DNA of 64,000 nt from Macrostomum lignano (GCA_002269645.1 NIVC01003139.1:53639-117638), one strand, 5' to 3'; positions 42,463 to 52,600 are shown, counted from the stretch's first letter. Program-made: numbers and translations. Notes: generated by a model not told the origin, from the letters alone.

Positions 42463-45241
42463 TTAAAGGTGCGAAGCAGCGAAAGCAGCGGGATCTTCTG
42501 ACTGCTGGTTGAATAGCGACCAGCAGAATTCAATTGGACAAACGAAACCATCATCCAAATCACTAAATTCGATACTGCGCTTTGCCTGTTGATCTGATAT
42601 TCTGCGCCATGACATTGGCAGATCCGGCATCTTGGCTCCATGCCGTTCTGCAAGTTGATCCTTGAATTTGCACATGAACCACTTCCAGAAGTCTGATGGT
42701 CCGTCATGAAAATTTTCACAACTCAGTTCAGGAAAGTAATTCTTGTAGTCTGAAAATTTGTGTCTCTCGCAGTTTTCCGACTCTTCACTGTGACACTTGA
42801 ATCTGACTTTTGCACAGGTAAATTCTCCACCGCTGCGAACCAGGTCAGCACAAGTGTACAAGGCAAGCTCATTTTTTGAGTCGACAATGCCTGCTACACC
42901 TGCTGGTCTGCGACCAGTGCAGACTTCCGGATCTCGAATTTCGGATTCTAGAAAACTTTTGGTTTTGAATGACTTTTGTCTACTGATTTCAAAAACCGAA
43001 GAATCAAAATCACTACAGATGTCCCCACAGAATGGGCAAGTTGCAGGTCTTTGTGAAAGTGATGCCGGGACAAAATCATCCGATCTCCTGCACCATGAAA
43101 AAAGTTCCGGCCTCTCTTCTATTTCAGCAACTACATCATGGCTTAATGACTGCAGTTGACTTGAAAGCGCTGAACTAAACGCGTTGATGTTTCTGACACA
43201 GTGGCTATCTGTTTTAAAATCTGGTAGCGGAATCGAATCCACGATCATAGAGCGGAAGCTCTGAAGCCAAATATTCAGCAAGTTGCTGGCCATCTTTGAC
43301 TTTCGTTGCTCTCTGCTGCAGTAACTCTGAGCACGTTTAACGGCACTAACTATGCGCTGTACTTGCTTATCAAGAAATGTTTCAATGGTTTGAGAAGTGT
43401 GATTTCTCCTGTCGGGATTGAATGCTGTTTTTCGAATCATTTCCTGCATTCTATTTCGTGTAAACAGCCATGGGTCATCAATAAGTTCGATGAAATCGGG
43501 AAATTTCCCACCTTCAATAAGGGATTTCATCGCAATCGACAACAGGTACTCTTTTCGAAGTATAAATATGTGGCGATTTGCAAATCTTTCGAAATCAAGA
43601 AATCTAAATCTCAGGTGTTCAACAGCAGTCTTCTTCATGGCCTCCTTGATCTGATGTATCACATAAGAAGCACTGATGATGTCATCGCTTGTATTTTTAA
43701 ACCTCCCAATAAAATCTTGCTTTGCTGTCGGTTTAAAAGACTCAAGCTGAGTCTTCACCCCATGCTTCTGTTCATATCGCCTCTGAGCATCCCTAAGAAT
43801 ACCAGCCGAAACCTTGCAAGCGTGGACTGACAGGAATACCTTAAACTGAGGCTTTAGTTTGATTGTTGATGATGAGTTCTTGTTGAATTCATCAACTTTT
43901 GTTGTCACGAAACTGACAATCTCCTTAAAAAAACTTGCGCCTTGCAGTTGTCGCTCGTCTCTATACGCCAAATTTGACAGCTCAAAGTGGGCGTCAACTT
44001 CTCTGATGATTTTTTTGGCATTGGCAAACACGATTTCACGACATTCATCGTCAGAAAGTATATTTGACTCATCACTATGTTCAGATTTTTGTTTGGAAAA
44101 ATGCTCAGACAGGACTTGTTCCAATCTCATCAGACTTTCTGCATTGGCTTCCAGCCTTTTTTCATCAGTTTTTGTTGGATTTAACTGACAAATCTCGGTA
44201 TCAAGAAGGTTGATTTGATCAGAGAAAATCTCTCTGAGCCCCTTTTCTGCCTCTGAGAAAAAGTCACACCGGAAGCTCTCAGTGCTGGAGATTTCACTCA
44301 TAAGCTTTTCCCAAAGTTCATCGAATTTTTTCATTAATAACTCATCAGAGATGTCTTGGCCTTTAAGTTCCTCCGCCAGCTTTTTAGCACTAGTGAAGAT
44401 TTCCTGCTGACAGTTTTCAAGCTTTCCTTTGCTTTCAATCATTATTCTCTGCTCTTCCTTGATGTCCCGTAGTCTGTCGTATGTTTCGTCTTTCAAAACT
44501 CCAACGTCTCGCTGCAGACGCTGAGTTTTTTCCAGTTTCCACTGAAAAATGAGCTGGTCTTCACTGTGCTGGTCAAAATAACTTTCTAGTTCAGTTTGAG
44601 TGTTTTTTCCTTTATCGTCTAGAAACTTGTGCATCTCGCCTTCTGCTTGAGCCAAAGTCTGGCTAAGCGCATTTGAGTCTGTGCAAGAGTTCAGCATCTT
44701 AGCTCCGTCATCCATCAGCCACTGAAACGTCGATGCTTCCAGTCGAGTTTTTAATTCCCTAAACTTTTTCTCGACTTCCTTATATGCTCGAAGCTCAAGA
44801 GTATTTCGAAAGCCGAAGACGAAATCTTCTTTGCAAACGGCATCCCACAAGTCCTTGATCCTAACTGCCAGATCACTGACTGAGAGGTTGTAGTCCTTGA
44901 AGCTTTGAAGAACTGTAAGGATGAGTTGCTTCGTTTCCTGCACATCTCTGCTGTAGGCTGGACTCACAGCGGCAAACGGAGGTTTCCCTTCCCACAAATT
45001 CGACAGGAAGACTACGTTTTTACTGGCGTCAAAAGCGATTATGTCTGTGAACTTCTTTACATCGTCGATTCCCTCTTCCTGCGCCGCAGTTTCAACAGTC
45101 TTGTCCAGAGTCTCAACAAGCTTGACTTTTGCTTTTTGAGTCTTCTCAGCCGAGTCGACAGCGCACACGTTCTGGTGAACGAACAAGCACGTCTTATCGA
45201 GTCTGAGCTTCTGGAAGGCCATTCTCATTCTGAGAAATGCA
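42463..45241 (-). pseudogene. GVIN1: VLIG/GVIN1-like very large GTPase, 3' part (separated by retrotransposon insertion)
   Basis: Open frame HAFLRM...CLFVHQNV...LWEGKPPFAAVSPAYS...DLWDAVCKEDFVFGFRNTLE...CPFCGDICS...RRPAGVAG...FWKWFMCKF, typical of VLIG C-terminal halves; joins the 5' part in frame when the element is removed. Confidence 0.88.
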
Positions 45242-45405
45242 ATCGTTACTCTCTGAGTAAGGGGTGTTAGACGCGCCGGAGGGTGCCGCTGTACATATCG
45301 CTGTACTTTGGCGGGGGGTTGAGGTGTGGGGGTTGGCCACGCCAGCCAGCTTAAAGCCTCTGCACCCGGCCCGGCTTGGCTCCGCCGCCATTTCTCAATT
45401 TTTTT
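45242..45405 (+). repeat. Split direct repeat A1 (164 bp)
   Basis: Identical to 49312-49475. Confidence 0.95.
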
Positions 45406-45419
45406 GCTCAGCCACCGCC

Positions 45420-46535
45420 ATGAGTGCCAGCCCAAAGCGACTAACCGTGCGCCAACTCAAGGCTGAGCTGCGAAACAGAGGCCTGCCTACTACGGGCCGC
45501 AAACAACAGCTTGCCAAGCGCTTGTCTACTGCACTCGGTTTAGAGCAAGCTGACGAAGACTTCAACAACTCCGAGATGACTTCTGCTCCGGACGCCGAAG
45601 ACGGCATCGGCAGCGCGGGCGAGGCGCCTCCGGGGGCGGGGAGCGACCGTCTGGCTGCGTTGCGGCAGGAGGTGGAGCTGCTCGAACTGCAAGTCCTGGA
45701 AGGCCGTCGTCGTGATCTTCAGCAACAGCTTCACACTCAGCAGCGCTTGACGGCTCAGCCCCAGCCAGCATCATCATCAGGTGAGCATAACGCACATGCC
45801 AGTCTGCAGTTGCCCGAGGTTTTTGAATCTGGGATGAGGGAGGCGGCTCAGCTTCAGGCCGCTAATTGCCAGGCTCCGACTCGCAAGTTGCATCTCGTCA
45901 GAGACCACATCAAGCTAGCCAGAGGATCCGGCTCAGCCAGTCAGGAGCAGTTGATCGCCACTATGGAGAATGGCTCGCTCACATTCAGAAAGCAGGAGCC
46001 GAAGCTGTCTAGTATCTCTGCTGGTCAGTGGATCGCGGCCAACTCGATCATCTTGCAAAAGCTGATCAAGGAAAAACTCCCGGTGGCTGCTGGAAGCACT
46101 GATGGTCTCCTGACTGACGTCCTTGGCTACCTTGACTACAATCGCAAGATCGGAGAGCTGCTGGCTGCTGACTACCCAGAGTCCGTAATCTGGGAGTTTG
46201 ACGAGGACTACCGGAGGCTGGTGGCGGAGTCGGGCATGGCGTGGGGTGAGGAGCCCCCTCAGTTGTACCACAAGCACCTCAACGCCCCCAGAAACCTGCG
46301 GTTCACGTTCGCTAAGCAGCCCAGCCAGCAGCAAATCCCGGCAGCAACCAGGCCGATCTGTCTGCGCTTCAACTCCGAGTCCGGATGCAACCGCCAGAAC
46401 TGCAAGTTCCGCCACGTCTGCAAAATCCAAGGCTGCCTGGCAGCGCACCCGGCTCATGCTCACACGCAGTCGCCGCAGTCATTTCTCACCGGACAGCTGC
46501 CGGGTCACGTGACTGGTGCAAGTGCAAAAAACTGA
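45420..46535 (+). CDS. Gag-like ORF1 (371 aa): N-terminal SAP domain, coiled coil, C-terminal CCCH-type zinc knuckle
   Basis: ATG in GCCACCGCCATG context; LTVRQLKAELRNRGLPTTGRKQQLAKRL fits the SAP consensus; ICLRFNSESGCNRQNCKFRHVCKIQGCLAAH. Confidence 0.88.
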   Translation: MSASPKRLTVRQLKAELRNRGLPTTGRKQQLAKRLSTALGLEQADEDFNNSEMTSAPDAEDGIGSAGEAPPGAGSDRLAALRQEVELLELQVLEGRRRDLQQQLHTQQRLTAQPQPASSSGEHNAHASLQLPEVFESGMREAAQLQAANCQAPTRKLHLVRDHIKLARGSGSASQEQLIATMENGSLTFRKQEPKLSSISAGQWIAANSIILQKLIKEKLPVAAGSTDGLLTDVLGYLDYNRKIGELLAADYPESVIWEFDEDYRRLVAESGMAWGEEPPQLYHKHLNAPRNLRFTFAKQPSQQQIPAATRPICLRFNSESGCNRQNCKFRHVCKIQGCLAAHPAHAHTQSPQSFLTGQLPGHVTGASAKN

Positions 46536-48391
46536 TGCCATTTTATCCAGCTGACTGCTCTGCTTTTAATTCCGATTTTTCTGCTTTTACTTCTTCGCTG
46601 CCCATCTCGTCTGACCTGCAACCTGACGCCTGGAGTGCTCTGCTCAGCGACGACCCAGACCGCGACTTTCTGATGCAAGGCGTCGTCAACGGTTTCGCTC
46701 TCACCAATGCTGGCCAGCCACCTTTGACTTCGTCCAGGAACCACGCCTCCGCCCTGCTGCACCGCTCTGCTGTGGAAGCCCAGGTCGAGGAGGAGCTGCG
46801 CCTTGGGAGGTACATCCGGTGGAGCGGCCCGATCAAAATCAACCCCATCGGTGCCCTTCCCAAGTCCGACGGGCGGGTCCGCCTGATCCATGACCTGTCC
46901 TATCCGACCGGCCAGTCTGTCAACGACTTCTACGACCAACAGAAGCACATCAAGTACTGCACTGTCCAGCAGCTGGTTCGTCATCTCCATCCGGGACACT
47001 ACATGGCCAAAATTGATCTCAAAAGCGCCTACAGGTCCGTGCCAATCAGGCCTGCTGACTACCGGCTCGTCGGCCTCGCCTGGCGGTTTGACTCGGACAG
47101 CCAGGACAGTCTGCTCTGCGACACCAGGCTTCCCTTCGGCGCCAAAGCTGCTTGCGAAGTTTTTCACCGTCTTTCAGCCGCCGTTACCCGGCACATGCAC
47201 CGGCTTGGCTTTTCTGCTACGGTGAACTACCTGGATGACTGGGCAGTCGCTGGGAAATCCGAGTCCGAGGCTTTCGCTGCTTTCAATTGCCTGCTGGACA
47301 TCTTGCAGCGCCTCGGCTTTGCCATCAACTGGGACAAGGTTGTCAGGCCTACGCAATGCATCGACTTCCTTGGCGTGCGCATCAACACCGCTACCGGCAC
47401 CAAGTCGCTGCCCGAGGAGAAAGCTCTCGAGACGACAAAGCTGCTGACTCAAACCTGCTCGGAGACTCGGGTGCACATGCGCTCTGCTCAGAAGCTGATT
47501 GGCAAGCTTGGCTGGTTCTGTCAGATTGTCCCTCATGTCAGAGTCTTCCTGCGTCCGCTCTTCGACTGGCTGACAACTGCTGTTGACTGCAAGCTTTGGG
47601 TGACCGATGAGACCCGCGCCAACCTGTCCTGGTGGCTCAGAGCCCTGGCTTGGCTCCCCCCGGTGCCTTTGTGGCCGCGCTTTGATGAGGAGTTTGCCAT
47701 GGAGACTGACAGCAGCCGGTCGGGCGCAGCCGCAGTCATCTGGGGTGCCGAGAGTTGCTGGAGTGTCATCGACTGGGAGCTGGACTGCGGTGGTGTGTTC
47801 AAGGATGTTCATATCAACTTCAAGGAGGCTCTGGCACCTTTGCTGATCATCCTGCACCGTCGCTCTCAGCTAAAGAACTGCAAGATTGTCATCTACACCG
47901 ACAGCACCGCTGCGGCTGGCATGATCAATCGACTGAGCTGTCGTGACCCGCGGTTCCTGCAGGTGTACCAGACTGTGGCTCTGCTGTGCACCAGGAACAG
48001 CATCAGTTTGGAGGCCTTTCACCTTCCTGGTCGCATGCAGATTTTTGCTGATGCCGCCTCCCGCATGTTTGCCTCGCAGTCTGAGCTCATTAACTTTTGC
48101 TGCCGCTACTACCGTACGCTCGTGATCTGCCCGCTTGAGTTCGCGTCGCACGCGCTCTCTGCCGCTTCCCAATCTCGCCTCCTTTTGCAGGTCGCCCTCG
48201 CCCTCCGGAGACGCCGCCCGTCCGCCGCGCTGTGTCTGCCAGACACCTGTGCCGCCTCGGCCTGGCGGAGAACTCCTGGCGATCCTACCTCAGCCAGCTG
48301 CGCTCCTGGGAAGCCTTCTGTGTTAGCGCAGGCCGCCCTTCATCTCCAGCTGACGGTGACCTGCTCTGCCGCTACATTGCGCACCTGGTGA
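46535..48391 (+). CDS. Reverse transcriptase + RNase H (618 aa from ATG 46535)
   Basis: RLIHDLS, KIDLKSAYRSV, RLPFGAK, NYLDDW, DFLGVRIN; RNase H METDSS, HINFKEALA, YTDST, HLPGRMQIFADAASR. Confidence 0.93.
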   Translation: MPFYPADCSAFNSDFSAFTSSLPISSDLQPDAWSALLSDDPDRDFLMQGVVNGFALTNAGQPPLTSSRNHASALLHRSAVEAQVEEELRLGRYIRWSGPIKINPIGALPKSDGRVRLIHDLSYPTGQSVNDFYDQQKHIKYCTVQQLVRHLHPGHYMAKIDLKSAYRSVPIRPADYRLVGLAWRFDSDSQDSLLCDTRLPFGAKAACEVFHRLSAAVTRHMHRLGFSATVNYLDDWAVAGKSESEAFAAFNCLLDILQRLGFAINWDKVVRPTQCIDFLGVRINTATGTKSLPEEKALETTKLLTQTCSETRVHMRSAQKLIGKLGWFCQIVPHVRVFLRPLFDWLTTAVDCKLWVTDETRANLSWWLRALAWLPPVPLWPRFDEEFAMETDSSRSGAAAVIWGAESCWSVIDWELDCGGVFKDVHINFKEALAPLLIILHRRSQLKNCKIVIYTDSTAAAGMINRLSCRDPRFLQVYQTVALLCTRNSISLEAFHLPGRMQIFADAASRMFASQSELINFCCRYYRTLVICPLEFASHALSAASQSRLLLQVALALRRRRPSAALCLPDTCAASAWRRTPGDPTSASCAPGKPSVLAQAALHLQLTVTCSAATLRTW

Positions 48392-49188
48392 GCACCCGGC
48401 TCCGGTCTTTCTCTAGCCTCCGATCCTACATCCATGCCGTCTCTTTTCTGCACCAAGCCACCGGCGCCCCCGACCCAGCGAAAGACTTCACCGTGCAGCT
48501 GGCCCTTCGCGGCGCCAAACGTCATCTCGGCCTGCGATGCAAACAGGCGAAGCCGCTGACCATCGAGCACCTCAAGAGCATCCATCAGCAGCTCCCGCGC
48601 TCCATCTCAAGCGCAGATCTCAGGGCCGCCTTCTGGGCGGCTCTTCTGGTGGGCTGGTGGGGCATGTTGCGCCTTGGCGACTTCCTATCGACCCGCGGCA
48701 GCCGCTCTGTCTCACGGGCCTGCCTGTCGGCTTCACCTGGCTGCTGGAAGTTGACCCTCCCTAAGTCCAAGACCAACCAGTTCGGGTCGACGCCGCATGT
48801 CGTTCTTCTGCCACCTGTTCAAGAGTCACCGCTCTGCCCTGTGCGCGCTCTACTGTCTCACCTGCACCTGTCACCAGCCAGCGACCCAAGGGCGCCGTTC
48901 TTTGGCTACGGCCACGGAGGCGAGCTCTCAGCCAGCCAGTTCATCAGCTGTCTTCGTGCGTGTCTGGCTGCGTGCGGCCTTCCAGCTGCTGGTTTCTCCG
49001 GCCACAGCATCCGGCGTGGGGGTGCCAGCTTCTGCCATCAAATCGGCTCGTCAGAATCAGACGTTCGGGCTCTTGGGGGCTGGAGATCGGACGCTGTTCT
49101 CCGCTACTTTTCTGCCAGCTCTGCCCTGTCGCGCCGCCAGCGCTCTGCTTCTTTCATGGCTTCGCAGCTGCAGGCTGCGTCCACCTGA
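48191..49188 (+). CDS. Tyrosine recombinase ORF3 (no usable ATG; probably entered by splicing at 48191)
   Basis: Catalytic set GMLRLGD (R), LPKSKTNQ (K), SGHSIRRGG (HxxR), GGWRS (W), LRYF (Y); N-terminal LAENSWRSY...FC SAM-like domain; frame open from 48139; first in-frame ATG only at 48664. Confidence 0.92.
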
Positions 49189-49231
49189 CTGCCTTCCCGC
49201 TTTTACTCCTTCCCTTCCCCATCATTGGGGT

Positions 49232-49311
49232 TGGGATCCGCTTTCTCGGCCGCTGCCTGCTTTTCGCAACTGACTTTGTCTCGTTTGGCTCCTTCCGGCG
49301 TGTTTAATGCA
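49232..49311 (+). repeat. Split direct repeat B1 (80 bp including AATGCA core)
   Basis: Identical to 49545-49624. Confidence 0.95.
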
Positions 49312-49475
49312 ATCGTTACTCTCTGAGTAAGGGGTGTTAGACGCGCCGGAGGGTGCCGCTGTACATATCGCTGTACTTTGGCGGGGGGTTGAGGTGTGGG
49401 GGTTGGCCACGCCAGCCAGCTTAAAGCCTCTGCACCCGGCCCGGCTTGGCTCCGCCGCCATTTCTCAATTTTTTT
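49312..49475 (+). repeat. Split direct repeat A2
   Basis: Identical to A1. Confidence 0.95.
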
Positions 49476-49544
49476 ATCTTCTTTTTACAAACCAGTAAAT
49501 ATTAACTCAGTTAAACTAATAAATAAACGCTTCGCTTGATCCAC

Positions 49545-49624
49545 TGGGATCCGCTTTCTCGGCCGCTGCCTGCTTTTCGCAACTGACTTTGTCTCGTTTG
49601 GCTCCTTCCGGCGTGTTTAATGCA
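49545..49624 (+). repeat. Split direct repeat B2 (right terminus)
   Basis: Identical to B1. Confidence 0.95.
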
Positions 49625-52600
49625 TGCACCACTATCTGCAGCACGTCAGAAATGTCTGTAACACTCTCACCCATGATGTTCATTATGGTGACGTCAGCTA
49701 GCCCTACGGCCATTGTTGCCAGCTCATTGTCTCGAGTCTTCACGCCCTCACCGAGTTCAGGTGCCCGCAATCCTTCCGTGTCGATGACGACGATGAAATC
49801 TACTGGCAGTCCTGATTTGTCTTTATTGTTTTTCACCAGCTGCATGAAGGCGCCTCTGGTGCAGCGTCCAGCACTGACTGGCAGCTGCAGACCGAACATT
49901 GTATTGAGCAAAGTCGACTTTCCCGAGCTCTGAACACCCAAAACTGACACCACCAGAAGTGTCTTCTTGTCGACTGTATCGTCTAGTTTTTTCAGTACAG
50001 CATCGATCCAGTCAATGGCGACAGAGCTGGCTTCACCATCGATCAGCTCTAGAGCGTGTCCGTGAAGAAGCAGCTGAACGGCAGAACTGAGGAGGCTGCT
50101 TGTGAAGTCTTGGTTCTGCTTTGATAGGCTTTCACTGCTCACAATGGCCTCGTAAACCTGTGAGAGCTCACGAAACACATGCTCAAGACCAAATGAGTTT
50201 TCCTCAAGCTCATCTTCGTCGCACCGAGCCGCAATTTTATCATCATTTGGCAGAACCCGTGGAATCAGTTTTCCTGACATACTGTTGAATCTCTGCCTCA
50301 TGTACAACAAAAAAAGTTGAAACCTGCTGGATGCTAAAGACGCTTTTGCAGTGAAAGCCATCATGAAACTCCCCTCTCTCTGCTGCTTTTCAATGCACAG
50401 GCGCTGTTTCTGACGCAGCTCTCGCACTTCCTCTTCGATGCTGTCCACCCATTTGACTCGCTGGTTTCCTGTCAAGTTTCGTTTTCCTCTGAGTTTTTCC
50501 TTCATTTTTCTCGAAATTTCATGCCATCCATTTTTGTGCAGAGGCAAAGCTACTTTTTTGGCCTCACTGACGCCTTTTGGCTCAATAATGTCAGAAACCA
50601 TTTTCATTAGCTCCTTCACCTGATTCTCAATGCACCGTGTCTCCGAGTCCAGTTCATCAACCCACCAGCCTTGCGATTTCGCTCTTTCTGCCAACTGGTT
50701 CAGTGACATCCTCGGTATCGACTCATCACTCGCAGGGTATTTTATGGACTTTATGGCTTCTGAAAGAACACTCCTGAGTTCTTTGGTTAGGTCTGGTATT
50801 GGAACATCCGATCCTTCTTTAGTTTTGCATTTTACAATGGCAACCATCTTCTGCACGCTTTCTTTCCCGAGTTTCTTCGCCATGTTGCGCAAGCAGCTAG
50901 GAGTCTTCGCAGAATCGGTGACTACCAGAAGACGATACTTGCTTTCAAACTTTTTAGTACTTAAATTTTCGAACACATTTATCAGAGCAGTCTCAATATT
51001 TTGACGTTGCTGCTGATTCGAGTCATAATCACCAGGAAGCATCACAATCACGCAATTGGAAACTTCTGCCAGCAGCTGACGCTGCCGGTGCCACTCAAGC
51101 GCGTCTCCCCGCAGGTTCAGGAGGCAAACCGCATCCGGCACTTCTAAGTCCCCATCCGGCAGAATCCAGGTCTGCTCGATGCTGCCATCGCTCATAATTC
51201 TCTCACACTGAGATTTCTTTGTTGCACTGAACACTTCGTGTTTATCGTGAATGCATTTGTTGATAAGCTCAGATTTTGAAAGTGCATTTGTGCCTAGTCT
51301 AAGCACCGACACCACATCAAACGTATCAGAATCCAACGACTTCAGAGCGGACTGCCGACCACATGGATCTTTCGTATTGCGGAACTTGAGCACGCATGAC
51401 CTGAGAGGCCAGACGAATAGAAGTGGCAAACTTGGAGTGAAGCAGCAGGCAACAGGTACAGCAAGTTTGCAGTCGAACAGTTTCTCTGCAACTATCTGCT
51501 TCAGCCGAGCATCGCAGCAAAGAAACGTGATCAGGAAGACGTCAGAGTGGAGAAGTTCAGCATGATCGGAAACGTCTGGGTTGTCATACACAGAATTCGA
51601 TGATGAATCTGGTGTAGGGTGCAATGATTCGGGCTCTGAGTCATCATCATCAGACCAACCATATCCACTAGGTTCCAACTGTTTTTTATTACACAATGCT
51701 TGTTGTGCCTCTGAAACGATGCTCCTGAATGTCTTGTAGTTTGTCATGACGACTGCTTTCAGCATGAGCAGTGGCAAATCTTTAATATCCTTCACCAGAA
51801 TCTGAGCTTCTAATTGCTCATCTCTTAGCTCCATCACTTCACCGAGGGAAATATTTCCAGGAAACTTGTCCTGCAGTCCAAGAGTCTCCAGCACTTCATT
51901 TTGCTTGTTTGTCAGCGATTCCAGACACAGTAAATCTGCTGCTGCATCCTCGTATGTACTGGATGTATTGCTCATAGTCCGCACTCTCTGCTCCCCCAAC
52001 TCCACACGCCAACGTGAACCGTCTGACTTGAAGTTACCCAGCATTTTGTTCACAGCTTCACTTAATTTGCTCCAGTCGCCTGATGCCTGAAACGACTCTA
52101 CTGCTTCTTGCACTTCAGGAGTCCATGAGTTTTGGCCATAGATGCTGAGTAGCTGCATAGCATTTGCGTTGTTACAGGAATCTCCGTAGCTATCAATGAG
52201 GAGTTTGAGCAGACTTAACTGTACGAATTCTGACTCTGAGCTTCTCTCTAGCGACTTCAGAAATTTAATTTTATCACCAAGCGCTTCTGTGAACTGCTCC
52301 AGCTTCTCCAGAGTGAGCAGCAGATCAAAGGCCTGTTCCTTCAGTTGAAATGAGTAGGTCCCCAAGACCAAGCTTGTAACGAACATCTCGCTGCGATTAG
52401 AATTTTCCCTCATTTGCTCCAGAAGGTATCTCACTGCTGCTGTAAGATCCTGCCTAACCACCTGAAGTATGTTCCCTTTGCCGATTGTCTGCTGAGCGAT
52501 CGCATTGCGTACATCAGGTATAACTCGATCATGCATAAGATTCACGAGTTGTTCAGGACTTGTGACCTTGCTATCAGAGAGTATCGAATATTTCAGTGGA

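Follow-up and report, generated by a model that had tools for sequence, protein, structure and literature searches.

The window examined here, a stretch of 64,000 nucleotides (nt) of Macrostomum lignano DNA (GCA_002269645.1 NIVC01003139.1:53639-117638), contains an intact, recently spreading Ngaro retrotransposon of the layout A1-gag-reverse transcriptase (RT)/RNase H (RH)-tyrosine recombinase (YR)-B1A2B2. The gag-like open reading frame (ORF), the RT/RNase H and the YR follow each other in this order on one strand, as Ngaro requires. The present analysis concerns the expression of the pol and YR frames, and in the first place the gag/pol junction, where the following features were found:

45420..46535, + strand: gag-like ORF1 of 371 amino acids (aa), with a SAP domain and a Cys/His finger, C-terminus ...ASAKN-stop
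46526..46532, + strand: slippery heptamer A AAA AAC, the predicted site of the -1 frameshift; all 14 frameshift families have a C immediately before it
46533..46537, + strand: gag stop TGA overlapping a pol-frame ATG (TGATG), the ATG at 46535-46537 and probably incidental
46532..48391, + strand: pol frame after the shift, with RVT_1 at 46967-47383 (E 3.7e-12) and RNase H; predicted Gag-Pol of 990 aa
46541..46600, + strand: unstructured U/pyrimidine-rich tract with three TTTTA motifs (46541, 46564, 46585); an in-phase but non-conserved acceptor, TTTTATCCAG/, lies within it at 46550

The letters at 46524-46537 are GCA AAA AAC TGA TG. The gag frame runs from the ATG at 45420 to the TGA ending at 46535, and the pol frame, -1 relative to gag, is open over 46316-48391; a third frame (48139-49188) is in turn -1 to pol. 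An earlier note on this DNA had read GCA AAA AAC TGA (46524-46535) as the end of gag with pol in the -1 frame, and the letters and frames were confirmed, as was the heptamer in the correct X XXY YYZ phase, immediately 5' of the stop and inside the -1 overlap. The TGATG overlap of the gag stop with a pol-frame ATG (46533-46537) was likewise found as described. The heptamer is the sole AAAAAAC of the 4.4-kb element. Contigs of four sequencing runs were compared, of which X3 (45376-47264) and X9 (45376-47931), both of RNA type, span the junction unbroken; the RNA origin of the runs is a guess (14 runs guessed RNA, none on record as RNA).

The heptamer was present in 28 of 30 near copies. Since near copies are uninformative on conservation, diverged loci (L plus a number) were fetched from the same genome with RT queries, 100 in all (60 first, then 40; 150 of 2077 and 150 of 620 candidates scored), and grouped into families at 80% pol identity; the element of the window is referred to as W. 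W and the first 60 loci gave 41 readable junctions, comprising 29 AAAAAAC-stop, one AAAAAAT-stop, three in-frame UGA and eight broken or changed, with 20 unreadable; the further 40 gave 13 AAAAAAC-stop, 16 in-frame UGA-C and 11 unreadable. These correspond to 14 frameshift-type families (pol 36-71% identical) and six readthrough-type families, one of the latter (L119) being a single damaged copy. In 14 of 14 frameshift families gag ends in NCA AAA AAY-stop, though the tails before it are unalignable; L072 (72% identical to L071, broken, AAAAGAC) is an exception if counted as a family. The Lys codon before the stop is AAA in all 14 despite making up only 26% of gag Lys codons, which points to a constraint on the nucleotides and not on Lys-Asn protein ends. 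AAC accounts for 67% of gag Asn codons and A for 15% of third positions. With the codon usage of gag (2972 codons), xxA AAA AAC is expected at about 4e-5 per site, and NCA AAA AAC with the Lys-Asn end fixed at 0.026 per family. A set of 26 related metagenome loci contained eight in-phase A AAA AAC (in one of these, L136, gag is cut by the contig end), eight single in-frame stops, three other -1 overlaps, two +1 pol frames with their own ATG and five unreadable junctions. The conservation among family members that the earlier note had proposed as a test is thus present in 14 families and in 8 of 26 metagenome loci; on this comparison the heptamer is a real signal, and the -1 frameshift half of that note is strongly supported.

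The position of the pol frame leads to the same point. In L063, L036 and L071 only 22-34 nt of open pol frame precede the gag stop, which pins its entry point there. The first pol Met is found at codon 85 in L058, 144 in L123 and 388 in L067, behind conserved pol blocks. In these families, then, the only way to Pol is a fusion, and the ribosome has to enter it where gag ends.

From the observed sequence, phase and conservation we infer the shift itself: A AAA AAC is likely a programmed -1 frameshift site that would make a 990-residue Gag-RT-RNase H fusion from unspliced RNA, with YR likely obtained by a splice and the ATG likely a by-product. Most ribosomes would stop at the UGA and release Gag. 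A minority would slip back one base on Lys-Asn and continue as ...KN-LMPFY, giving the transframe peptide ...GASAKNLMPFYPADCSAFNSDF, as against an N-terminal MPFY. The fusion peptide ASAKKLMPFY proposed earlier needs a correction, as by the standard model tandem slippage predicts ASAKN-LMPFY, and ASAKK-LMPFY would be a minor product; the split of the frameshift products of human immunodeficiency virus (HIV) is reported in PMC5009743 (consulted in part).

The 3' region of W was searched for a stimulator. The earlier note had seen no obvious downstream hairpin, and indeed the region is less structured than its shuffles: 46526-46650 has a predicted folding energy of -15.1 kcal/mol, whereas its shuffles average -19.8 (z +1.66; 196 of 200 shuffles at least as stable), and minimum free energy (MFE) folds of 45, 90 and 150 nt in the W family gave z values of +0.9 to +2.5. 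The pseudoknot check suggested in that note, a simple scan for the H type after the heptamer, gave none in W. No stimulator, specific or shared, of W, L031, L036 and L048 (the W clade) emerged from MFE folds, a pseudoknot scan and a long-range duplex scan without shuffle control, and no hairpin is predicted after the heptamer in these four, L056 or L063. Stem-loops 5-11 nt past the heptamer are predicted in L049 (z -2.7), L071/L072 (L071 z -2.5), L058, L108/L128, L113 and L123; in a canonical signal the stem-loop or pseudoknot stands 5-9 nt downstream. In the W clade the shift would rely on the very slippery C-A6-C motif and on a pause at the stop. A stop as the codon after the slippery site also occurs in Rous sarcoma virus (RSV) and barley yellow dwarf virus, and a stop as the next codon at the HIV site reduced shifting (PMC4373837, in excerpt).

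A protein on the U-rich tract would possibly help the shift, the least supported step of the scheme. TTTTA occurs 34 times in 2400 nt after the gag stops of 20 families, 13 times in 2280 nt after YR stops and 25 times in 26,000 nt of pol; the motifs stand in differing reading frames and are lacking in L058, L108 and L113, three of the families with the strongest hairpins. A frame-independent cluster of TTTTA(T/A/C) within 120 nt past the gag stop was observed in 16 of 20 families. These motifs resemble cytoplasmic polyadenylation elements of the UUUUAU type. The tract may recruit a ribosome-slowing protein or, by analogy, may mark the stop as genuine and so shield the RNA from nonsense-mediated decay. 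With the RSV stability element, at which PTBP1 protects the gag stop (PMC4764554, in part), W has in common a pyrimidine-rich tract right behind the gag stop and a long downstream region; here the match is one of composition only, and protein binding is a hypothesis.

Unlike pol, the recombinase frame appears to be reached by splicing. The features concerned are:

45778..45786, + strand: predicted phase-1 splice donor CAG/GTGAGC, the intron of which would start at 45781
48175..48191, + strand: predicted phase-1 splice acceptor, (pyrimidine tract)CAG/G, opening the YR frame
48191..49188, + strand: YR frame without an N-terminal ATG of its own, Cre-like (E 5.5e-11)

In 17 of 19 YR-bearing families gag contains a phase-1 GTRAG donor 640-760 nt upstream of its stop (L063 is shifted by a frame break of the copy examined, and L075 is decayed), and in 18 of 19 the YR frame opens with a pyrimidine tract and CAG in phase 1; the conservation of both sites supports the splice predicted in the earlier note. 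The first ATG of YR lies 175 codons into the open frame. A double frameshift from pol to YR was considered and rejected, as none of 11 families has a heptamer in phase where YR starts; the G GGU UUU of L048 is 130 nt downstream and out of phase. With donor and acceptor conserved in phase and no slippery site, YR is probably spliced. A 2410-nt splice is likely, on these signals, to join the SAP-bearing N-terminus of Gag to YR, with SAP-Gag(1-120)::YR (452 aa) as the predicted protein. A contig of run X10 departs from the element exactly after 45780 and resumes at G000:C1:2340449 directly behind a host AG, which fits use of the 45780 donor; no element copy lies within 1.5 kb of that site. This joint (L091, L092) is a possible chimeric element-host transcript. 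Three different recoding mechanisms had been proposed for the element; since splicing is not recoding and the stop-start is probably incidental, these most likely reduce to two routes, a frameshift for Pol and a splice for YR.

In the family L065-L069 YR is lost and no such gag donor is present, and this family probably borrows a recombinase in trans. Intact split repeats, heptamer and RT/RNase H without YR were seen in L061, L065-L067, L069 and L089, the pol of which begins with a long repeat of Ala, Gly and Pro. At L033, L035/L125 and L048 YR matches lie on the upstream side of gag, which suggests families in tandem or nested in each other's repeats.

The families without a frameshift site provide a second layout. 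L078, L100, L103, L104 and L111 form one clade (Shimodaira-Hasegawa-like approximate likelihood ratio test 99-100) adjoining the frameshift families L108 and L113, and have the gag/pol joint CAY UGA CU(G/C/A), with pol following in frame (567-606 codons where the copy is intact). One-frame gag-pol with a single stop was also recorded more widely, in the same genome (L076-L079, L093-L095, L099-L107, L111, L112, L119 and L130, mostly UGA-CU) and in the metagenome (L133, L135, L138, L139, L142, L144, L150 and L152, mostly UGA-C). Such families are likely to read through the stop; a reporter gave about 1.4% readthrough at UGACUG, a leaky stop (PMC4373837, in excerpt). On trees built by a quick method, midpoint-rooted, with one longest matching segment per locus (37 rows and no outgroup for readthrough), the readthrough label changes seven times, at least four of the changes being forced by well-supported branches; switching between frameshift and readthrough looks recurrent, the direction of the switches not being fixed by the tree. 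As both layouts give a fusion, the Gag-Pol fusion is what is kept. By analogy with mouse mammary tumour virus (MMTV) as against murine leukaemia virus (MuLV) (PMC5009743, in part), the common output of both is presumably a low-level Gag-Pol fusion. The sister families have, like MuLV, one frame across a single stop; MuLV uses UAG and a pseudoknot, whereas the sister families mostly have UGA followed by CU.

Several observations weigh against the scheme of a frameshift for Pol and a splice for YR. The W clade, without a predicted 3' stimulator, could shift inefficiently. The metagenome -1 loci L141, L149 and L151 lack the exact heptamer, and decayed relatives deviate from it: L026/L027 (A7, no ATG), L072 (AAAAGAC), L080/L081 (one A fewer) and L084 (AAACAAC). 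No contig joins 45780 to 48191 in four of four runs compared, which, for contigs only, is not evidence of absence. The in-phase acceptor at 46550 is a good one, and TGATG in two separate families, together with L137 and L146, makes an ATG-started Pol possible in the group; both are taken up below.

Termination at TGATG followed by reinitiation, giving free Pol alone or beside frameshifting, is unlikely. The earlier note had placed two alternative routes in 12 nt, of which the frameshift stands on its conservation and reinitiation does not. Among the 30 near copies, 28 have a pol-frame ATG that overlaps the stop (two lack it), as has the unrelated L108/L128 family, but of the 14 frameshift families only W and L108, which do not group as sisters, have TGATG; the other 12 and all eight metagenome heptamer loci are without it. 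The second pol codon after heptamer-UGA begins with A, so that ATG is expected in about 1/16 of cases, and two such families out of the eight that end in UGA are within chance (by hand calculation with 1/16 for each, P is about 0.09). From these counts TGATG is probably due to chance, the overlapping ATG likely being a by-product of the second pol codon. A free Pol is further opposed by the first pol Met lying behind conserved blocks in L058, L067 and L123, by the poor start context of the 46535 ATG (C at -3, C at +4) and by L108 itself, where a -50 kcal/mol stem-loop follows the stop at frameshift spacing. Ordinary reinitiation is disfavoured after an ORF as long as the 371 codons of this Gag. 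Caliciviruses have UGGGA, a reinitiation motif complementary to 18S; no UGGGA was found within 100 nt upstream in any of the 14 families, and so W shares with calicivirus and influenza B termination-reinitiation the overlapping stop-start but neither this motif nor conservation across relatives. The related metagenome elements L137 and L146, with a +1 pol and an ATG of its own close to the gag end, speak for reinitiation and represent a third way to express Pol.

A further possibility, a Pol translated from an alternative splice product in the manner of foamy viruses (45780 donor joined in frame to the 46550 acceptor) with the heptamer secondary, is very unlikely. The sequence TTTTATCCAG/CT is in phase with the donor and has this form in 28 of 30 near copies, but phase-1 acceptors near the pol start occur in merely 5 of 20 families, at scattered positions, and the acceptor of sister L031 is in phase 2. 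The X1, X3 and X9 contigs run unbroken over 46551, and no joint to 46551 was seen in the four runs, which again is not evidence of absence. Such a splice would explain neither the heptamer nor the readthrough clade.

Conservation of the motif for the sake of a Lys-Asn C-terminus of Gag, or for slippage of a polymerase, is hardly credible: KN ends all 14 Gags and L060 has one extra A and a fused frame of 1036 aa, but the synonymous choice NCA AAA AAC is fixed (the above 0.026 per family if free), six metagenome loci have the heptamer 1-13 codons before the stop so that KN is not terminal there, the Gags of the readthrough type have H, D, Y or Q as their last residue, and the contigs of four runs show no A insertion at the site. 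The extra A of L060 (oriented 2345-2352) lies in the slippery run and is a copy variant or an assembly error. A search for Gag homologues, intended to compare their ends in other species for KN, gave none at E 1e-8 among 7998 protein database candidates.

The remaining features of the element and of its insertion site are:

45236..45405, + strand: split direct repeat A1, 100% identical to 49306-49475; its first six nt, AATGCA, form the crossover core, which the host target also has
49232..49305, + strand: split direct repeat B1
49306..49475, + strand: split direct repeat A2, the B1/A2 junction carrying the core AATGCA
49545..49624, + strand: split direct repeat B2, ending in AATGCA
42463..54240, - strand: host URGCP/very-large-GTPase-like gene interrupted by the element, with PF25683 on both sides and PF25496 in the upstream part

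The SAP domain of ORF1 is at 45435-45530 (PF02037, E 8.5e-11) and the Cys/His finger, with invariant Cys/His residues, at 46359-46448. The RNase H match of pol is weak (RT_RNaseH, E 0.0027, below the Pfam cut-off). The YR residues GHSIRRG...W...RY align to Cre, with HxxR and the catalytic Tyr present; the YR of the window is itself below the Pfam cut-offs, and YRs of sister families match PF00589. No match to a methyltransferase family was obtained with pol (E 0.01) or with its C-terminal 236 aa (E 1), in contrast to DIRS1 and PAT. The A1-[ORFs]-B1A2B2 layout is also present in L049, L058, L063, L067, L071 and L078.

The empty site has AATGCA once, and the element has it at either end and where B1 meets A2; this is the expected trace of integration by the recombinase via a short core. 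The uninterrupted host form, with six ambiguous letters at the joint, was found in the contigs of four of four runs, in which an empty allele or a paralogue of the disrupted GTPase gene is therefore present. This URGCP-like gene is very large, with long intron-free stretches. By sequence identity the family is young, because six further copies are about 100% identical over 701 nt and 5 of 30 near copies share a 424-codon gag frame and a 621-codon pol frame. Elsewhere in the window, positions 700-40400 are a dense mosaic of varied minisatellites with periods of 8-50 nt.

The mechanism class itself is known from textbooks. A_AAA_AAC had been named in the earlier note as a heptamer of MMTV, bovine leukaemia virus (BLV) and human T-cell leukaemia virus (HTLV), which is borne out by PMC3835772 (in part), and it is among the most shift-prone eukaryotic heptamers (PMC5009743, in part). 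The sites of MMTV, BLV, HTLV-1/2, equine infectious anaemia virus and the intracisternal A particle (PMC3835772, same excerpt) have the same heptamer and phase at the gag end, and the stem-loops 5-11 nt downstream in several sister families are a further likeness; W differs in being a YR retrotransposon, not of the long terminal repeat type, in a clade without a predicted pseudoknot or hairpin. With the Ngaro elements of order DIRS (PMC8547959, PMC3783388, PMC9210276, each in part) it shares the A1-ORFs-B1A2B2 layout, the gag-like/RT-RH/YR order, overlapping frames, integration via a short shared core, and that no protease or integrase is seen; as no protease is seen, the Gag-Pol fusion may stay uncut. 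No translation signal is described with the Ngaro definitions in the consulted parts of these sources. Ribosomal frameshifting is guessed for YR in a review cited by PMC13003380 (in part); here the slippery site is at gag/pol and the pol/YR overlap has a conserved acceptor, so that the present families argue against YR being reached by frameshifting and point to splicing. No paper mapping a gag-pol slippery site or readthrough in Ngaro or DIRS was found in a search outside which lay the founding accounts and supplements, where prior mention is possible.

It is put forward only tentatively that a retrovirus-like Ngaro programme (A AAA AAC shift, readthrough switches and YR splicing) has not been mapped before, with a W-clade shift that would be structure-free through a protein on the U-rich tract or slow termination. 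If true, the clade would offer an example in nature of a eukaryotic -1 signal that needs no RNA structure, and its close sister families would serve as built-in controls. The junction itself gives an exact testable site together with natural variants in one genome (hairpin-stimulated, structure-free and readthrough). The way in which DIRS-order elements obtain RT and recombinase from start-less overlapping frames has so far been guessed, not mapped, and the present families show that these elements and retroviruses have converged both on one heptamer and on the choice between frameshift and readthrough.

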